The translations under genes were made by a program, and so were the position numbers. This document shows, one piece after another, positions 40,362-56,977 of a DNA stretch of 64,000 nucleotides; the first letter of the stretch is position 1; every line of letters starts with the position of its first letter. This DNA is from a virus (lineage: Duplodnaviria; Caudoviricetes): IMG/VR virus record IMGVR_UViG_3300012979_000032, positions 28,915 through 92,914 of that record; one strand, 5' to 3'. The notes under the pieces are model-generated. The model saw nothing but the letters and a program-made list of their open reading frames with translations, was not told where the DNA came from and searched no databases.

Positions 40362-40694
40362 CCAAAAGAAACAGCCCTCGCTGTGTGCGGCTTGACCATC
40401 TCGCCTACCCAATCTAACCAGAGAGGGATGGGACTTGAACCCATGGCTCACACAGAGGGCTGTTCAGTGGGCAGGGCATTCACCCTCATCAGAGTCCGCT
40501 TGCGCTTCGCAGTAGTTATGCGCTACCACTTGTAAGACTCACCCAAATGCCCTTGCCTTATGCCTCTCGTCTTCACTTGCGTGGATGGAATTTCACCATC
40601 GACCATCGGCAAGGACTGTATGCGTCTTTGGTATCCAAGTTCTCACTGAGTGTCGACCCTCAGGCTTGGTAGCGATTCCGCATCCCCTCGCTGT
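40362..40694 (-). ncRNA. Putative ~330 nt structured non-coding RNA with tRNA-like T-arm
   Basis: Promoter TTGACA(40729-40724)-17-TATTAT; no RBS-led ORF; nested helices; AUGGG-UUCAAGU-CCCAU; closing stem plus U-run. Confidence 0.7.
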
Positions 40695-40850
40695 GATTAT
40701 ATAATAGCACACCCTTCGCGTTTTGTCAACACTTTTTAGAAAGAAAATAAAAAAAAGTTTTTTAGAAAAAAGGGTTGACATTCTGGGCAAAGTATGTTAT
40801 TATTATCATGTCAGGAGGGGAAAGCCTCCAAGAGAAAGGAAGTAAGAACA

Positions 40851-50055: not shown

Positions 50056-50199
50056 ACCGCCACTTTCCCTGTATAAAAATTCATACTTGACAATTTTAAA
50101 AAAATATGTTATAATATATATAGAAAGTTAAAAGAGCCTTTATGTCAATAAAAGGCTCTTTTCTCAGCTGGGCGCTCACGTCCGCAAGCGCCCAGTGTT

Positions 50200-51021: not shown

Positions 51022-51106
51022 GGTCTCCGCACGGGGCGCGAAAAAAAAGTTGAAAAAACTTTTGAAAAGTGCTTGACATTCTGACCAAGGTATGATACTA
51101 TAATCA

Positions 51107-51178
51107 TGTCAGGAGGGCAAGGGCCAAGAAACCCAGCAGGCGCGCATGCTGAGGAAGTAGAGGAAGAAAACTTCTGAA
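51107..51178 (+). ncRNA. Putative short RNA from an ORF-less promoter
   Basis: TTGACA 51073 / TACTAT 51096; ~70 nt without a credible RBS-led ORF before the next promoter. Confidence 0.5.
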
Positions 51179-51278
51179 AAAAAAGTTTCCCAAACCCCTT
51201 GACAAATCAAACAGGGTATGCTATAATAAGTACATCAAGTGAAGGAAAACACTTAAACACCAGAAAGGAATTGATACT

Positions 51279-51629
51279 ATGGAAAAGATGACTAATGTGA
51301 AGGCTCTCTCTTACATCCTGACCAACTGCGAACTGCCTGAGGATGTGAAGTCCAAGGTCGAAGCCATGAAGGCTTCCTATGAGAAGAAGGCTTCTGCTGA
51401 GCGCAAGCCTACCCCCACCCAGACTGAGAATGCTGGCTTCAAGGCTGAGATTCTGGCTGTGCTGGCTGATGGCGAACAGCGCACCATCACTGATCTGATG
51501 AAGGCTGTCCCCTCTCTCTCTGATCTGTCCAACCAGCGAGTGTCTGCGATTGTTCGCCAGATGACTCTCTCTGGCGAAGTGGTTCGCATCGAAGATAAGC
51601 GCAAGGCTTACTTCAAGGTGGCTGAGTAA
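51279..51629 (+). CDS. Winged-helix DNA-binding protein, paralog 1 of 3
   Basis: ERKPTPTQ..N...K..IL..L..G...TITDLMK...LSNQRVSAIVRQ...SGEVVR.EDKRKAYF. Confidence 0.85.
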   Translation: MEKMTNVKALSYILTNCELPEDVKSKVEAMKASYEKKASAERKPTPTQTENAGFKAEILAVLADGEQRTITDLMKAVPSLSDLSNQRVSAIVRQMTLSGEVVRIEDKRKAYFKVAE

Positions 51630-51747
51630 GGGCGCAAGCCCTTACCCCCCTTGTGGGGGCTCGGCCCGGGCGCAAAAAAAAATTTGCGAAAAGTATTGAC
51701 AACTGACCCAAGGCATGCTATAATAATACTCGAAAGGGGGAAGGGAA

Positions 51748-52113
51748 ATGACTGAACAGGTACAGAAACTGATGAAGACCCTGAGTATCAGCGAACAGGA
51801 AGCCATGGAAATCCTTAATGCTGACAAGGAAATCGACAGGGGCGCAAAACTGTTTAGCCTTGACAAAGAAGCCGAAAAGGAATCCAAGAAGGCTCGACAG
51901 GGCGACAGGAAAAAGCCTATGGTCTGTAAGTTTGATTCAAGCAAAAAGACCAAGCCTGCCAATGAGTCTAAGTCCAACATTGTTTCCAATGTGGTTTCGA
52001 CTCTGGAACAGATGGGCGCAACTGAAATCAATCTCACCAACCCTGAAAGAGAATTCACTTTCAAAATGGGCGATGTGAAATACAAGTTTGTTCTGTCTGT
52101 CCCTCGCAGTTAA
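51748..52113 (+). CDS. Hypothetical protein (NPERE motif), paralog of 56504..56977
   Basis: Shared LDKEA, K.NE.K and NPERE..FK motifs. Confidence 0.8.
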   Translation: MTEQVQKLMKTLSISEQEAMEILNADKEIDRGAKLFSLDKEAEKESKKARQGDRKKPMVCKFDSSKKTKPANESKSNIVSNVVSTLEQMGATEINLTNPEREFTFKMGDVKYKFVLSVPRS

Positions 52114-52212
52114 GGGGGCGCAAGCCCCCTAAACTTTTTTCCAGAAAAGTATTGACAAGTCGCCACGGCTATGCTATAATATAATCAATCCAAGAGGAAA
52201 GGAACTGATACT

Positions 52213-52410
52213 ATGAGAGACCCCAAGCGAATCTACACCACAAGCAACGCAATCGCCACCATTTGGGCTGACCTGCCAGATTGGCGATTCGGACAGCTGA
52301 TGTACAATTTCAAGACCCACATGGACAAGCAGGGCATTGACATTTTCTACCTCGAAGAGGACAAGTTCGTCGAGTGCCTGCGCGAGTATGTCGACCAGTT
52401 CAAGCTTTGA
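52213..52410 (+). CDS. Small phage protein (MRDPxRI...PDWRFGQL type)
   Basis: Own promoter and RBS; motif common in phage hypothetical proteins. Confidence 0.8.
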   Translation: MRDPKRIYTTSNAIATIWADLPDWRFGQLMYNFKTHMDKQGIDIFYLEEDKFVECLREYVDQFKL

Positions 52411-52533
52411 GCTGGTCGCCGCCGGCCGTGGCGACCAGTTTTTCGCTTTAATACCGGGCCGCCAAAAAATTCGTTGAAAATTTGTGCACTTTTACCACTT
52501 GCTTTTTATCCCAATACCTGCTATAATAAACAA

Positions 52534-52845
52534 TGTCAGGAGGCACTGAGGTGATGCTGAGTGAAGCTGGTCGACAAAACTTCTTCAAAAAAAGTTTTGA
52601 AAAACCCTTGACAAAGCCGCCAAGATGTGATACAATGACAATGTCAAGAGGGCAAGGGTTAGTAAACCTCCTAAGTGATGGGTGCTTTGCCCCAAGGAAA
52701 TTTCCTTGAAAAAAGTTTAAAAAACCTCTTGACAAGTAGCGCAGGATGTGCTACAATAAGGATGTCAAAGGGCGAGGGAAGCCCAAAGGTTAAGGTCTGG
52801 CTGCCAAGACTGAAAGGGTTCAAATCCCACAGAGGACGCTCTGAA
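52534..52845 (+). ncRNA. Three consecutive ORF-less promoter units giving short RNAs, the third tRNA-like
   Basis: Promoters at 52499, 52608, 52729; hairpins; GGG-TTCAAAT-CCC at 52816-52828. Confidence 0.6.
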
Positions 52846-52944
52846 AAAAAAGTTTCCCAAACCCCTTGACAAACTCCCCAAGGTGTGATACAATAAGGAC
52901 ATAAAGAGAAGCCACCTCTTAAAAAGCAGAAAGGGATTGATACT

Positions 52945-53298
52945 ATGACTAAGATGACTAACATTAAGGCTCTGGAGTATGTTCTGACCAACTGCGCTGA
53001 CCTGCCCTCTGAGGTCACTGACAAGCTGACTGCCATGAAGTCCAGCTTCGAGAAGAAGTCCTCTGCTGAGCGCAAGCCCACTCCTACCCAGCAGGAGAAC
53101 ATGGGTCACAAGCAGGAGATTCTGAACCTGCTGGCTGATGGCAACCAGTACACCATTACTGACATCATGAAGGGTGTTCCTGCCCTGTCTGACCTGTCCA
53201 ACCAGCGAGTGAGCGCCATTGTGCGCCAGCTGACCCTGTCTGGTGAGGTTGTGCGAGTTGAGGATAAGCGCAAGGCTTACTTCAAGCTGGCTGACTGA
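52945..53298 (+). CDS. Winged-helix DNA-binding protein, paralog 2 of 3
   Basis: Highly similar to 51279 and 55802. Confidence 0.85.
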   Translation: MTKMTNIKALEYVLTNCADLPSEVTDKLTAMKSSFEKKSSAERKPTPTQQENMGHKQEILNLLADGNQYTITDIMKGVPALSDLSNQRVSAIVRQLTLSGEVVRVEDKRKAYFKLAD

Positions 53299-53440
53299 TT
53301 CCCCAAGGGGAAGGGGCAACCCTTCCCCAGCCCCTCGGGCAAAAAAAAAGTTTCAAAAAAGGGTTGACAAATAACCCAAACTGTGGTACTATAATCATGT
53401 CGAAAGGGCAAGCCCCTCTAAAAAGAAAGGAATTGATACT

Positions 53441-53782
53441 ATGATGAACTCTTACCTCGAATCCGCCAAGAACCTGAACGACCTGACCAATCGCATGGGT
53501 GTCCTGACCAAGCTGTGCGCTCTGACCCCTGGTGCTGAGTTTTACGCTTCTGACCTGGGTCTGTCTGGGCAGACCATGAACTCCCTGAGCATGCATGGTG
53601 TTGTCACCTATGTGAGGGGCAAGGAAAAGGTCGAATTCATCCCTGCTGACCACTATGGCGAACTGTACAGGAAGGTTGAGGTCAACTGCTGGACTGTCGC
53701 TGACAAGTTCCTGACTGACCACTTCCGCAGCTACTGTGGCAGCATGGCGGCTCTGTACTCTGCGCAGATGCTGGCTCTGTAA
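53441..53782 (+). CDS. Hypothetical protein, possible winged helix
   Basis: EFYASDLGLSGQTMNSLSMHGVV. Confidence 0.75.
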   Translation: MMNSYLESAKNLNDLTNRMGVLTKLCALTPGAEFYASDLGLSGQTMNSLSMHGVVTYVRGKEKVEFIPADHYGELYRKVEVNCWTVADKFLTDHFRSYCGSMAALYSAQMLAL

Positions 53783-53895
53783 GAGGGGGACTCCCCCTCT
53801 TTCGCCCGAGCGAAAAAAAGTTTTAAAAACCCCTTGACAAGTTGCCCACCCTCTGCTATAATATAATCAATCCAAGAGCGAAAGGAACTGATTCT

Positions 53896-54102
53896 ATGGA
53901 AACTGTAATGATCAAGCGCACTCAGACCTGCCCCAAGTGTGGCAAGTCCCACTCTGTAATGGTCCCCTTCTCTGAGTACTGGGCATGGGAATGCGGCGCG
54001 CCCATGGAACAGGCTCTGAAGTCTCTGACCTACTGCGAACTGAAGCAGATCGCCACCAAGGTTTGCCCTGATTGCCAAAAAGAAATTTTAGGTTATCAGT
54101 AA
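53896..54102 (+). CDS. Zn-finger protein, paralog of 54787..55077
   Basis: CPKCG...AWECG...CPDCQ. Confidence 0.8.
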   Translation: METVMIKRTQTCPKCGKSHSVMVPFSEYWAWECGAPMEQALKSLTYCELKQIATKVCPDCQKEILGYQ

Positions 54103-54170
54103 AAAACCCCTTGACAACCTGAGTCCCCTATGCTATAATAAGTACATCAAGAGCGAAAGGAAATGATCTG

Positions 54171-54428
54171 ATGAATTACAATGTGATCGCCCACTATGAA
54201 GATGCTACCATTACCTGCGAGACCAATGACATCCATGTTGCCCTGACCTTCCTGCTGGAGCATGGCGACACTCAGATCGAAGTGATTGATGGCTTCACTG
54301 GTGAGATCCTGTGTGCGCAGAACTGCGAAGATCCCATTCTCCAGGATGCCTTTGGGCTGACCCTGCTGGGCTTCCTGATGGAGCAGGCATGGGGTGCTGT
54401 CCTCGAATCGCTGGGCGAGGGGGACTAA
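54171..54428 (+). CDS. Acidic hypothetical protein
   Basis: Own promoter and RBS; VIDGFTGEIL. Confidence 0.8.
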   Translation: MNYNVIAHYEDATITCETNDIHVALTFLLEHGDTQIEVIDGFTGEILCAQNCEDPILQDAFGLTLLGFLMEQAWGAVLESLGEGD

Positions 54429-54527
54429 CCCCCTTTTTCGCCCGGGCGCGAAAAAATTTCAAAAAGGGTATTGACAAATCATTCAAGAGGGTGTATAATA
54501 GTCTTACAAACGAAGGAGGCGACCCCC

Positions 54528-54731
54528 ATGCGAGACCTGATTCTGAAAGCCCTTGCCCAGTATCCCAATGGCCTGCGCCAGCGCATGATTGCTAGTGAGG
54601 TTGGCTGTTGGACTGCGAACCCTGAACTGCGTCAAACCCTTGACGCTCTGACCAATGAGGGCGTTCTGTCTAGGCGCTACCACAGCGACCCTGCCAACAT
54701 GGAATATTATTTTATTTGGAAAATCGCTTGA
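54528..54731 (+). CDS. Small winged-helix protein
   Basis: ILKALAQYPNGLRQRMIASEVG...LDALTNEGVL. Confidence 0.75.
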   Translation: MRDLILKALAQYPNGLRQRMIASEVGCWTANPELRQTLDALTNEGVLSRRYHSDPANMEYYFIWKIA

Positions 54732-54786
54732 CAAGCGACCCAAGGTGTGCTATAATAAGACCATCAAGAGGAAAGGAACTGATACT

Positions 54787-55077
54787 ATGAAGTTTGATTT
54801 TGAAGTTACTGTGATCTGCCCCTTCTGCGGCGAAGTTTCCACTGTTGCTGTGGTCAAGAAGGACTATGATGCATGGCAGTGGGGCGAGCTGATTCAGAAT
54901 GTCATGCCCTATCTGTCTCCCAGCGATCGAGAGATTCTGATCAGTGGCATGTGCCTGAAGTGCCAGTCCTCTTTCTTCTCCTGCTGTGAGGAAGAGGATG
55001 AGGACTTCGAGCCTGATGACATTGACGACGACTGCGGCTTCGACCCCTATGAGGGTTGCTTCACTTACGACTGCTGA
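54787..55077 (+). CDS. Zn-finger protein with acidic tail
   Basis: CPFCG...AWQWG...REILISGMCLKCQ; DCGFDPYEGCFTYDC tail. Confidence 0.8.
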   Translation: MKFDFEVTVICPFCGEVSTVAVVKKDYDAWQWGELIQNVMPYLSPSDREILISGMCLKCQSSFFSCCEEEDEDFEPDDIDDDCGFDPYEGCFTYDC

Positions 55078-55090
55078 GGAGGAATGTAAA

Positions 55091-55330
55091 ATGGAAATGA
55101 CTCAGAAACTGGCCAATGACCTGATGGACTGCCTGTGCGCTCTCGCTATCTCTGCTAATGGGCGCATGCCTGAGACTGATGAAGAGTTTGAGCAGTGTCA
55201 GCAGTATGCGAAGGACACCTTCATGACGCTCTGCGACCAGTGGGAGCAGGTCACTGGGGAGACTTGGGAAGTCATCCCCAGCGAGGACATTGATGATGGT
55301 GTCGAGCGCATCACACAATTTTTGAACTGA
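55091..55330 (+). CDS. Acidic hypothetical protein
   Basis: GAGGAGG RBS; terminator hairpin follows. Confidence 0.8.
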   Translation: MEMTQKLANDLMDCLCALAISANGRMPETDEEFEQCQQYAKDTFMTLCDQWEQVTGETWEVIPSEDIDDGVERITQFLN

Positions 55331-55511
55331 GATGGCAACATCTCAGTTCCTTTATCTTTTGGGCCGGGCGCCCACGGTCGAGGTGCCCGGTTTTTCCGCG
55401 TATCCTTCCATTATAACATTTTTCCGAGCAAAAGTCAATAGGCAAATTGAACAAATTTTTTCCCGAAATTTTGTGCTTGACATTTGGGTCAGGGTGTGGT
55501 ACTATGATCAT

Positions 55512-55700
55512 GTCAGGAGGGCAAGCCACTCTCCAAGGGCTTGAAAAAAACTTTGAAAAAGTTTCAAAAACCTCTTGACAAGTAGCACAGAGTGTGCTAC
55601 AATAAGGGTGTCAAAGGGAAAGAAACCAAGTCGCTTAGCCAAGGTAGCCTGAGGATGGGTGCGCAACATCCATGGTTAGACCCTGAGCAAGCGAAGCGAA
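55512..55700 (+). ncRNA. Two ORF-less promoter units giving short hairpin RNAs
   Basis: Promoters 55477 and 55575; CAAGCC/GGCTTG, TCGCTT/AAGCGA and GGATG/CATCC stems. Confidence 0.55.
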
Positions 55701-55801
55701 AAAAAAGTTTCAAAAACCCTTGACAAACAACTGAATAGGTGCTATAATAACAATGTCAACAGGGGAAGGAAAACCCCACAAACCAGAAAGGGATTGATAC
55801 T

Positions 55802-56155
55802 ATGACTAAGATGACTAATGTGAAGGCTATCGACTTTGTTCTGACCAACTGCTCCAACCTGCCTGAGGATGTTGTCGCCAAGCTGAATGCGATGAAGGCT
55901 TCCTTTGAGAAGAAGTCCAGCGCTGAGCGCAAGCCCACCCCCACTCAGGTGGAGAATCAGGGCCACAAGGAAGCCATCATGGCTGCCCTCGCCACTGGTG
56001 AGAAGATGACCATCACTGACCTGATGAAGGCTGTGCCTGAACTGGGCGAACTCTCCAATCAGAGGGTGAGCGCCATTGTGCGACAGCTGACCCTGAGTGG
56101 CGAAGTGGTTCGCACTGAGGATAAGCGCAAGGCTTATTTCTCCCTCGCTGAGTGA
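55802..56155 (+). CDS. Winged-helix DNA-binding protein, paralog 3 of 3
   Basis: Highly similar to 51279 and 52945. Confidence 0.85.
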   Translation: MTKMTNVKAIDFVLTNCSNLPEDVVAKLNAMKASFEKKSSAERKPTPTQVENQGHKEAIMAALATGEKMTITDLMKAVPELGELSNQRVSAIVRQLTLSGEVVRTEDKRKAYFSLAE

Positions 56156-56268
56156 GGGAGAGAGGGGGAGTAACCCTCCCCCTCCCCTCGGCCCGGGCCG
56201 AAAAAAAGTGCTTGACAAGTCGCGCAGGGTGTGGTATAATGAGGACACAAACCAAAGGAGGATGACCC

Positions 56269-56472
56269 ATGAACCTGATGGAAAAACTGGAAAACTACAT
56301 TCACATGCAGACTAACTACGCCCAGCGCATGCCTGAACATCGCGCGACCTTCGAAGCCCATGTTTTCGGCGCAATCGAAATGGTTGCTTTCCTTGACCCT
56401 GAGAAGCAGGACATCCTTGAAAAAAAGTGGTATGATTTCAAAAAAACCCTTGACAACCTGCTCGAAGTGTGA
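56269..56472 (+). CDS. Hypothetical early protein
   Basis: AAGGAGG RBS; C-terminus runs through the next promoter. Confidence 0.8.
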   Translation: MNLMEKLENYIHMQTNYAQRMPEHRATFEAHVFGAIEMVAFLDPEKQDILEKKWYDFKKTLDNLLEV

Positions 56473-56503
56473 TACAATAAGGATGTTGAAAGGAGCTGAT
56501 CCC

Positions 56504-56977
56504 ATGTTTGAGAACTTACAGGAAGCCATTAAGCACTATGCCAAGTGCATGAAGTGTACCCCCAGCGAAGCCAAGGCAGATGCTGAGCGCGAAATCGCCC
56601 TGATGATGGAAAAGGAAGGTTATTCGCGCGAATTTGCGGAAGCCACATGGATGGAAGAACAGGAAGAACTGAATTGCGCTGAACTGGACAAGCTGGACAA
56701 GGAAGCTAAGAAGAATGGTGCGACCAAGGTTGTCGCCCAGTCTGAGGACAAGCCCAAGCAGAAGCGCGCACCTCGCAAGCCCAATGAAGAAAAGCGCGCC
56801 CTAATTGATGCCCTGATGAGTGCGCTTGAAGATTTTCATCATGGCGATGAAGAGGAAATCGCTTCCCATGTTGAAGCTGTGGCGATTGTCAACCCTGAGC
56901 GCGAAATCAGTTTCAAGGTTTACGACCATGAATATTCCCTGACCCTGACCCAGCACAGGAAGAAGAAGGGGGAGTAA
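56504..56977 (+). CDS. Hypothetical protein (NPERE motif), paralog of 51748..52113
   Basis: AAGGAG RBS; shared motifs. Confidence 0.8.
   Translation: MFENLQEAIKHYAKCMKCTPSEAKADAEREIALMMEKEGYSREFAEATWMEEQEELNCAELDKLDKEAKKNGATKVVAQSEDKPKQKRAPRKPNEEKRALIDALMSALEDFHHGDEEEIASHVEAVAIVNPEREISFKVYDHEYSLTLTQHRKKKGE

Follow-up and report, generated by a model that had tools for sequence, protein, structure and literature searches.

Stacked gene-less promoters and structured RNA segments before winged-helix genes of an uncultured ruminant-gut phage: a possible compound leader of early transcription

Why would a phage place one complete promoter after another in front of a gene, with only a short non-coding RNA segment behind each? 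The question is raised by a 64,000-nucleotide stretch of DNA (the window), bases 28915-92914 of the 92,914-bp IMG/VR virus record IMGVR_UViG_3300012979_000032 (Duplodnaviria; Caudoviricetes), a record estimated to be about half complete. Three paralogous genes for small winged helix-turn-helix (wHTH) proteins lie in its early region, and each is preceded by extra promoters without an open reading frame (ORF); these promoters, the RNA segments behind them (the payloads) and the wHTH gene are referred to here as a module. The first-pass annotation of this region had proposed an undescribed unit of variable small RNAs and a nucleic acid-binding protein or, alternatively, a tandem-promoter amplifier. 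Near relatives from a metagenome scan were mapped onto the window, and all related loci (designated L110 and the like) were fetched around wHTH genes. Judged from these sequences, a module is perhaps best read as a compound, probably autoregulated early leader, in which stacked promoters and RNA modules would serve mainly in cis, a reading to which we give slightly less than an even chance.

All promoters and payloads of the modules lie on the plus strand, and each wHTH gene has a proximal promoter of its own. In module 1, a single extra promoter (TTGACA-17-TACTAT with TG, 51073..51101) is followed by payload A (51108..51178), a non-coding segment with a hairpin at ~51132-51154, a purine-rich tail and homologs in L119, L111 and L113, and then by the proximal promoter (51199..51227) and wHTH paralog 1 (116 aa, 51279..51629). 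Module 2 opens with a promoter read from the sequence (52499..52527) that has a poor −35 box (TTGCTT) and an extended −10 box and is identical in L110, L112, L117 and L190. It continues with non-coding payload B1 (52535..52590), a second promoter (52608..52636), non-coding payload B2 with its three hairpins (52643..52712), and a third promoter (52729..52757) carrying a palindrome in its spacer (52736-52754). Non-coding payload B3 (52764..52845), present in six relatives and containing two hairpins, one inner and one 3', as well as a T-loop-like motif (52817-52827), leads to the proximal promoter (52866..52894) and wHTH paralog 2 (117 aa, 52945..53298). Module 3 holds a first promoter (55477..55505), payload C1 (55512..55545), a short hairpin leader with related forms in L116 and L111, a second promoter (55575..55603) with a perfect palindrome (55582-55600), payload C2 (55610..55697), a lineage-specific non-coding segment with a long imperfect hairpin (folding z-score −2.0), the proximal promoter (55720..55748) and wHTH paralog 3 (117 aa, 55802..56155). 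Promoters stacked within a module are 98-145 bp apart. The one, three and two full promoters that had been counted before copies 1, 2 and 3 are confirmed, with the weak −35 box at 52499 as a qualification. Transcripts of 35-90 nt had been assigned to them; the segments are somewhat longer, a −10 box being separated from the next −35 box by 69-116 nt.

The units are not credibly coding. A promoter counted as ORF-less unless it was followed by a ribosome-binding site and a start codon opening a frame of 28 aa or more, and no credible ORF appears in the payload units, even if TAG is read as glutamine, as in the late genes of this phage; this part of the earlier description therefore stands. Two coding readings were tried and rejected. 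The first, leaderless peptides starting at the ATG of the leader ATGTCAGGAGG found 3' of promoters 51073, 52499 and 55477, fails on an ATG that is not kept in similar leaders and on frames and stops that differ among homologs; the second, that payloads are gene remnants, was probed by tblastx, for which the best 40 matches were self hits only. The earlier claim of homology between the modules holds: the leaders are shared, promoters 52729 and 55575 are nearly identical, and the three wHTH proteins, described as close paralogs, are 74-75% identical to each other.

How unusual such promoters are becomes apparent from the array in which they sit. The window contains 45 matches to TTGACA-N16-18-TAYAAT, with 0.1 expected by chance, and these consensus promoters are concentrated on the plus strand at ~38.6-58 kb, nearly all of them with an extended −10 TG. 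A scripted search for a ribosome-binding site and start codon places a small ORF 21-67 nt 3' of nearly every promoter, and the gene-bearing leaders are stereotyped, with a 5' hairpin followed by GAAAGGAAyTGATACTATG. By the same script, the ORF-less plus-strand promoters of the window are only 51073, 52608, 52729, 55477 and 55575, together with 50087 and 58445 of an AT-rich class; those with the standard G+C-rich spacer are found in the window only directly 5' of the three wHTH genes. The association extends to the relatives, which mostly carry two to four wHTH copies. Counted over the window and 21 non-redundant IMG/VR loci, 30 of 37 distinct wHTH genes have one or more ORF-less promoters directly 5', versus 22 of 131 other genes (Fisher p 6e-13), and with metagenome loci included the figures are 93/113 versus 61/378; these counts are not phylogenetically independent, the loci being mutually related and fetched around wHTH genes, a limit that weighs against our reading. 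The arrangement persists across paralogs and relatives down to ~40% protein identity, and the short payload families nearly always precede wHTH genes, whereas a longer RNA of the relatives (family X, below) precedes various genes. Strong enrichment before one gene family is not what random scars would leave behind. It thus speaks against the proposal that the units are empty cassettes, harmless by-products of recombination among ~50 near-identical promoter/leader/hairpin repeats whose payload has no function, a proposal that we consider quite improbable; payload ends that do not look like the trailers of neighboring genes tell against it as well.

Where would transcription from these promoters end? 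Modules 2 and 3 both start shortly after terminators. The upstream unit is closed before module 2 by an intrinsic terminator with a 14-pair stem and a T run (52409..52441), and before module 3 by two terminator hairpins (55324..55395), of which the first (55324-55349) was found by the consensus scan and the second (~55362-55395, then TTTTT) was read from the sequence. Inside the units of the window the consensus scan found no intrinsic terminator, and a test for a hairpin with a T run on all ORF-less units of the relatives found almost none in the units preceding wHTH genes. The hairpin that closes each payload runs instead into a stretch of A, with no T run, and this stretch serves as upstream element for the promoter behind it. 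Stand-alone units of the same phages do have terminators, as at 50087 in the window and in a class of the relatives with the terminator at +32. Because the units contain no terminator, the predicted transcripts are expected to continue into the wHTH gene, and discrete small RNAs would need processing, for instance in the A-rich linkers.

On the reading favored here, a module would be the composite beginning of an early transcription unit that has the wHTH gene in first place. Two to four promoters of the host sigma-A type are stacked in it, in modules 2 and 3 after a true terminator; behind all but the final one comes a short folded RNA stretch that encodes no protein, and then the A-rich upstream element belonging to the following promoter. 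The stack would produce nested transcripts that all enter the wHTH gene, raising the dose of the wHTH protein right after infection and providing part of the mRNA with long structured 5' leaders. The RNA segments may act mainly in cis, as stabilizing or processing modules at the 5' end of the leader, and nuclease cuts in the A-rich linkers could set them free. Finally, a wHTH dimer bound to the palindrome of the second-to-last promoter in modules 2 and 3 might shut the stack off, resulting in negative feedback. The cis role is favored because the units are without terminators, because stand-alone RNAs of these phages possess them, and because the short modules stay with one gene family. Of the proposed unit of small RNAs and a binding protein, the gene-less, promoter-driven segments and their tie to the wHTH genes stand, whereas discrete RNAs, given the missing terminators and the expected read-through, would require processing; the tandem-promoter amplifier that had been offered as its alternative fits the anatomy at least as well.

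The lack of a terminator or other defined 3' end is also the first difficulty for a serious rival. It holds that the payloads are trans-acting small RNAs (decoys or regulators, possibly directed against host defense) that would be processed from abundant transcripts of their own early promoters, with the wHTH protein as an Aca-like regulator of the locus, and it strikes us as possible, if doubtful. Its appeal lies in variable, portable payloads behind strong early promoters beside a conserved gene of the helix-turn-helix type.

Payload types A, B1 and B2 are conserved as much as or more than the neighboring coding DNA, a result that the empty-cassette proposal does not predict. In L110 and L112, the 263 nt of 52501-52763, containing three promoters, B1 and B2, show 0-1 differences from the window, while the wHTH coding sequence is ~3% diverged (5 synonymous and 5-6 other changes), the flanking genes 4-10% and the terminator/AT block 9%. 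Over 51 nt of B1, four relatives show 0-1 differences, as against 6-17% in their flanking DNA. B2, which is identical in L110 and L112 and absent from L117 and L190, reappears in L128 with 83.6% identity over 73 nt, again 5' of a wHTH gene, and the persistence of this payload beside a wHTH that is just 59% identical is hard to reconcile with functionless scars. Payload A is 15.9% diverged from its counterpart in L119, compared with 19.7% for the wHTH1 coding sequence and 46% for the gene trailer. The description of the RNA payload as variable thus applies between the copies of the window, but the payloads are not freely variable, A, B1, B2 and B3 being conserved in relatives.

Structure is retained together with sequence. 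The covariation described here is based on 2-6 sequences per payload family. Payload A forms a 7-pair hairpin in which 3 pairs show compensatory double changes among four sequences (window, L119, L111, L113), and in L128 the second and third hairpins of B2 are kept through a compensatory change and a paired deletion. All differences between B3 of the window and that of L110 fall within the inner hairpin, whose stem occurs among six relatives in four paired versions (GTCT/AGAC, GCCT/AGGC, GCTGT/GCAGC, GGCT/AGCC). The stem is thus hypervariable, while the G+C-rich loop is similar (GGCNGCC in 5/6 sequences), as are the flanks. Single-sequence folding z-scores are modest (+0.2 to −2.0) and alone uninformative. 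A check for covariation had been suggested at the outset, and it shows that several payloads are structurally conserved, with hairpins kept by compensatory changes. Absence of structural conservation, one of two conditions said to count against the first-pass proposal, is thus not observed; the other, read-through into the wHTH mRNA, is what the missing terminators lead one to expect. Because they are conserved and their hairpins are kept, the RNA segments appear to be functional parts under selection and not spacers. Compensatory changes in three payload types (A, B2, B3) count further against empty cassettes. Purifying selection and covariation on the payloads themselves, and a B3 hairpin that combines a hypervariable stem with a preserved loop and flanks, are equally what would be hoped for from RNAs that act in trans.

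Attempts to connect the payloads with known RNAs or targets were negative, and this weighs on the trans-acting alternative. No Rfam match in the window reached gathering score, the three modules and their vicinity had none even at E up to 1, and ARAGORN detected no transfer RNA (tRNA) or transfer-messenger RNA in the window or the whole contig, and no cloverleaf. No antisense targets of the payloads are present in the 92.9-kb contig. Tandem repeats in the payloads are confined to trivial 2-copy repeats of 6-10 nt, with no ~36-nt repeats like those of type III antitoxins. In 185,579 prokaryote genomes the B3 hairpin pattern had no match, by a single test with one exact pattern in the style of a CRISPR repeat, the host not being identified; the B3 3' motif is absent from IMG/VR, and a covariance model of B3 (R2) found no distant members. 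The links to CRISPR repeats, type III antitoxin repeats, tRNAs and targets in the phage contig that had been envisaged for the payloads thus found no support. Words resembling a tRNA T arm (GGTTCRANTCC) occur only twice in the window, with 0.15 expected, at 52817-52827 in B3 and at 40431-40441 on the minus strand, both within gene-less promoter-driven segments (the second within 40362-40730). Little weight is given to the word in B3 because of the negative ARAGORN and Rfam results and because similar words occur at other unit ends.

The composition of the modules turns over fast. Payloads A, B1, B2 and B3 recur in related phages, and whole units are swapped, lost or replaced. In L117 and L190 exactly one unit (the B2 payload and the 52729 promoter) is missing, with the junction in the shared leader, and in L115 a single different unit replaces B1-B3, leaving two units fewer. 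An A-type payload precedes the copy-2 gene in L111 and L113, in L111 a C1-type payload precedes copy 1, and in L118 a B3-type unit and the copy-2 proximal promoter are joined to a copy-3-like gene. Across all loci, 232 distinct units fall into ~137 sequence families. Judging from these junctions and permutations, units come and go and change places through recombination at promoter and leader sequences that they have in common. Differences in unit number among close relatives, whose break points fall in the common leader (L117, L190, L115), and the permutation of units between paralogs are also what the empty-cassette proposal would predict, and comparable shuffling mediated by PeSL cassettes is documented in other phages (PMC2839356). 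Among the close relatives L019-L029, moreover, the payload hairpin changes faster than synonymous sites, which again suits that proposal, with pairing nevertheless kept.

Several of these observations sit uneasily with the compound-leader reading and have to be set against it. Were only the wHTH mRNA served, a single shared leader would be expected, not ~137 payload families and units that move between paralogs; this diversity and mobility fit independent payloads better. A cis role would reach only part of the mRNA, since transcripts from the proximal promoter lack the modules. Nor are all payloads conserved. C1 is 29.7% diverged from L116, approximately the rate of its flanks, and C2 has given way in L116 to another payload, a shorter one, after the same promoter, no homolog of C2 having been found; both cases are easily accommodated by empty cassettes. 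The low divergence of 52501-52944 could, furthermore, be due in part to a recent recombination sweep and not to selection. Modules this diverse and portable, with fast turnover and a conserved regulator beside them, are equally typical of anti-defense loci, which is why the trans-acting alternative remains a serious rival.

The remaining element of the compound leader is its presumed regulator. The AlphaFold model of the wHTH protein (29 homologs, pLDDT 86) consists of N-terminal helices, a flexible lysine-rich linker and a C-terminal winged helix, which superposes over ~65 residues on MecI, SmtB/SqrR, AspA, MarR-family and Zalpha domains; a fold search with the model returned generic winged-helix matches only. 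As modeled, the fold is MarR/ArsR/MecI-like, the fold of dimeric repressors. Sequence searches against Pfam and PHROG gave only sub-threshold matches to MarR, ArsR, AlkZ and Ren-like families, and no Aca family above threshold, which speaks against the Aca-like regulator of the trans-acting alternative. No homolog was found among PDB sequences, and a weak PADLOC match to the wHTH part of a CARF-wHTH model is uninformative on function. The family is nevertheless large, with more than 7,400 clusters at 90% identity, without a Pfam domain or informative name, and with the longest contigs near 200 kb.

A plausible site of action for such a protein is found in the promoters. The spacers of the 52729 and 55575 promoters, which are the second-to-last promoters of modules 2 and 3, contain the palindrome GTAGCRC-N5-GTGCTAC, which extends from the spacer over the extended −10 box, and these are the only two such sites in the window (0.18 expected). 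As AGCAC-N5-GTGCT, it is found again ahead of wHTH genes in distant relatives. Across all loci, 17 promoters contain a palindrome that has arms of 6 bp or more and reaches into the extended −10 box; the next gene is a wHTH gene for 14/17 of them, compared with 223/733 other promoters, and most share AGCACA-N3-TGTGCT, even in diverged relatives. The palindrome is thus a candidate operator for a wHTH dimer, autoregulation being inferred because a palindrome of 15-19 bp over the −10 region suits a dimeric winged-helix repressor. A palindromic candidate operator in the driving promoter is also part of the case for trans-acting RNAs. So is the precedent of strong acr promoters, which Aca proteins hold down by way of inverted repeats (PMC9410906, PMC6765145). 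As a point against autoregulation, the palindrome could be a PeSL-type stem-loop without a bound protein.

Could the segments instead act on the polymerase that transcribes them? The put RNAs of phage HK022 are cis-acting antiterminator RNAs that belong to one conserved family of two stem-loops. Like put, which acts on its own transcript, the payloads are gene-less, hairpin-rich RNAs just 3' of early promoters, and they could modify RNA polymerase to allow processive antitermination, that is, read-through of weak hairpin terminators within the unit. Their position at the start of units behind strong terminators, their lack of a terminator of their own and the pairing kept by covariation are consistent with this idea, as are the G+C-rich hairpins, some with a T run, that follow several downstream genes. 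We nonetheless consider it very improbable. In contrast to put, the payloads comprise ~137 unrelated families, hard to square with one conserved polymerase surface; antitermination would hardly be needed, nearly every downstream gene having its own promoter; and there is no likeness to put or other antiterminator families of Rfam.

Larger promoter-driven RNAs are present in the same phage group. Family X, an RNA of ~165 nt in relatives (L010:2519-2700, L021:2323-2500, L030:2606-2775, L009:4337-4513, L038, L040, L044), has 12 of 30 predicted pairs covarying, no Rfam match, and a position before wHTH and other genes; its model (R1) finds no member in the window. As RNAs from like promoters, they lend some credence to trans-acting payloads. 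Family Y, ~205 nt, lies 5' of wHTH genes (L006:2559-2775, L032:2564-2775 and five more loci) and has shared motifs, and a pattern search with it gave mostly chance matches. In the most far-reaching version of the trans-acting idea, which we think unlikely, the gene-less units would be an exchangeable repertoire of fast-turnover, highly expressed early RNA effectors, for example decoys for host defense or RNA-binding proteins, held in check by a new, very large family of wHTH autoregulators, an RNA-payload counterpart of acr-aca loci in a widespread clade of ~190-kb TAG-recoded phages of the ruminant gut.

The surroundings of the modules have features of their own. NPERE-motif genes follow wHTH copies 1 and 3 (51748..52113, 121 aa, and 56504..56977, 157 aa, both on the plus strand); their proposed paralogy holds (32% identity, E 1e-7), with a 67-aa gene intervening after copy 3. 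In the window and in L005, L009 and L019, the terminator block of the next wHTH module mostly has an NPERE gene as its immediate or almost immediate upstream neighbor, and the regional repeat unit would therefore consist of a promoter stack, a wHTH gene, a few genes, an NPERE gene and a terminator. Between the terminators and the first promoter of module 3 lies an AT-rich control block (55401..55476) with 1 difference in 76 nt from L116, where flanking genes are ~30% different. It holds an inverted repeat of the type TTGnACAAA ... TTTGTGC and a minus-strand extended −10 promoter (55438-55410) that points back into the terminator, and it is found again in most relatives; 52442-52498 is its weaker counterpart at module 2. 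A subclass of promoters has a spacer of nearly pure A/T (37031, 43095, 50087, 58445 and 58640 on the plus strand; 36976, 20850 and 3048 on the minus strand) and may constitute a separate temporal class. One of them forms a stand-alone mini transcription unit (50087-50170), with a hairpin and T run within ~45 nt. The corresponding class of the relatives consists of a promoter, a G+C-rich hairpin and a T run at ~+32, and a convergent minus-strand promoter often lies beyond it.

The source of this DNA is an uncultured ruminant-gut phage with Gram-positive-style promoters, the origin being indicated by relatives whose contigs come from ruminant samples. The relatives include IMG/VR contigs of ~170-200 kb, and further ones (L190-L217) are contigs binned in metagenome-assembled genomes from yak, sheep, buffalo and rumen samples. 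The labels of these bins conflict (Bacteroidales, Treponema, Elusimicrobiaceae, Clostridia, Bacilli) and so do not name a host. INPHARED (50,697 phage records) holds no DNA match to the phage. The wHTH family marks a widespread clade of large uncultured phages of the gut and rumen. For these phages, which have never been grown, the conserved rule of a promoter-and-RNA stack with a recurring palindrome would amount to a concrete, testable circuit of regulation in the opening minutes of infection. Were the RNA modules to act in trans, they would represent a new pool of phage small RNAs, and guilt by association with the conserved regulator would find more of them; were they to act in cis, they would be compact, portable promoter and leader parts for strong early expression in hosts of the Gram-positive type.

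How do these modules relate to what has been described in other phages? Contrary to what had been supposed, the unit is in kind not undescribed, its parts being recognizable in the PeSL cassettes of T4-type phages, in acr-aca operons and in the A1-A3 promoters of T7. Type III toxin-antitoxin systems (ToxI) are a poor match: the ~36-nt tandem repeats are missing here, and the downstream gene encodes a winged helix and not an endoribonuclease. Closer are the Racrs, solitary repeat units that serve phages as RNA anti-CRISPRs (Camara-Wilpert et al. 2023, PMC10651486). They too are short non-coding RNAs directly behind a strong phage promoter, with a hairpin core and conserved flanks, and being promoter-proximal, highly expressed and dose dependent (PMC10651486) they furnish a precedent for trans-acting payloads. 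They differ in that no likeness to CRISPR repeats was found here in the one exact-pattern test, made with the host not identified, and in that no cas or acr genes are neighbors.

In acr-aca operons, a strong early promoter drives variable anti-CRISPR genes and is repressed by Aca, a helix-turn-helix autorepressor that binds inverted repeats in the promoter (PMC9410906, PMC6765145, PMC13551039). The modules similarly combine a strong promoter containing an inverted repeat, a variable and shuffled payload and a conserved small gene of the helix-turn-helix type distal to the promoter, and in either system an early promoter of such strength would plausibly have to be held in check. Here, however, the payload is a non-coding RNA, the regulator is a winged-helix protein without an Aca-family match, and the operator is a candidate. 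PeSL cassettes consist of strong early promoters and a stem-loop, and recombination inserts, deletes and replaces the segments they bound (Arbiol et al. 2010, PMC2839356). Shared with them are dozens of near-identical early promoters with an AT-rich upstream part, stem-loops, small ORFan genes and shuffling among relatives. In a lineage unrelated to T4-type phages, the present units enclose no gene, have conserved payload RNA and contain no terminator: PeSLs flank genes and their stem-loops terminate transcription, whereas the hairpins at the unit ends here are followed by A runs.

The host-takeover early regions of SPO1/SP82-like phages have dense, strong sigma-A early promoters before many small genes, and 5' stem-loops in their transcripts. 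Gene-less promoter-unit stacks tied to one gene family are not known from these phages or from Kayvirus. Together with the Kayvirus host-takeover early regions (PMC7698491), they resemble the present region in the dense sigma-A early promoter array, the small genes and the 5' stem-loops, and differ in having no sequence relationship to this phage, as judged from the 50,697 phage records searched.

The modules have a further parallel in coliphage T7, whose tandem major early promoters A1, A2 and A3, with a non-coding leader, were reportedly described by Dunn and Studier in 1983. In both cases, consensus host-type promoters of the same direction lie ~100-130 bp apart with no ORF between them and read, here by prediction, through a structured leader into the first early gene, and here too no terminator intervenes between the promoters and that gene. 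In contrast to T7, the stack occurs three times in a single early region, each time before a member of one family of paralogs; close relatives differ in how many units it has and in what these contain; one of its promoters is palindromic; and its promoters carry a Gram-positive-like extended −10 box.

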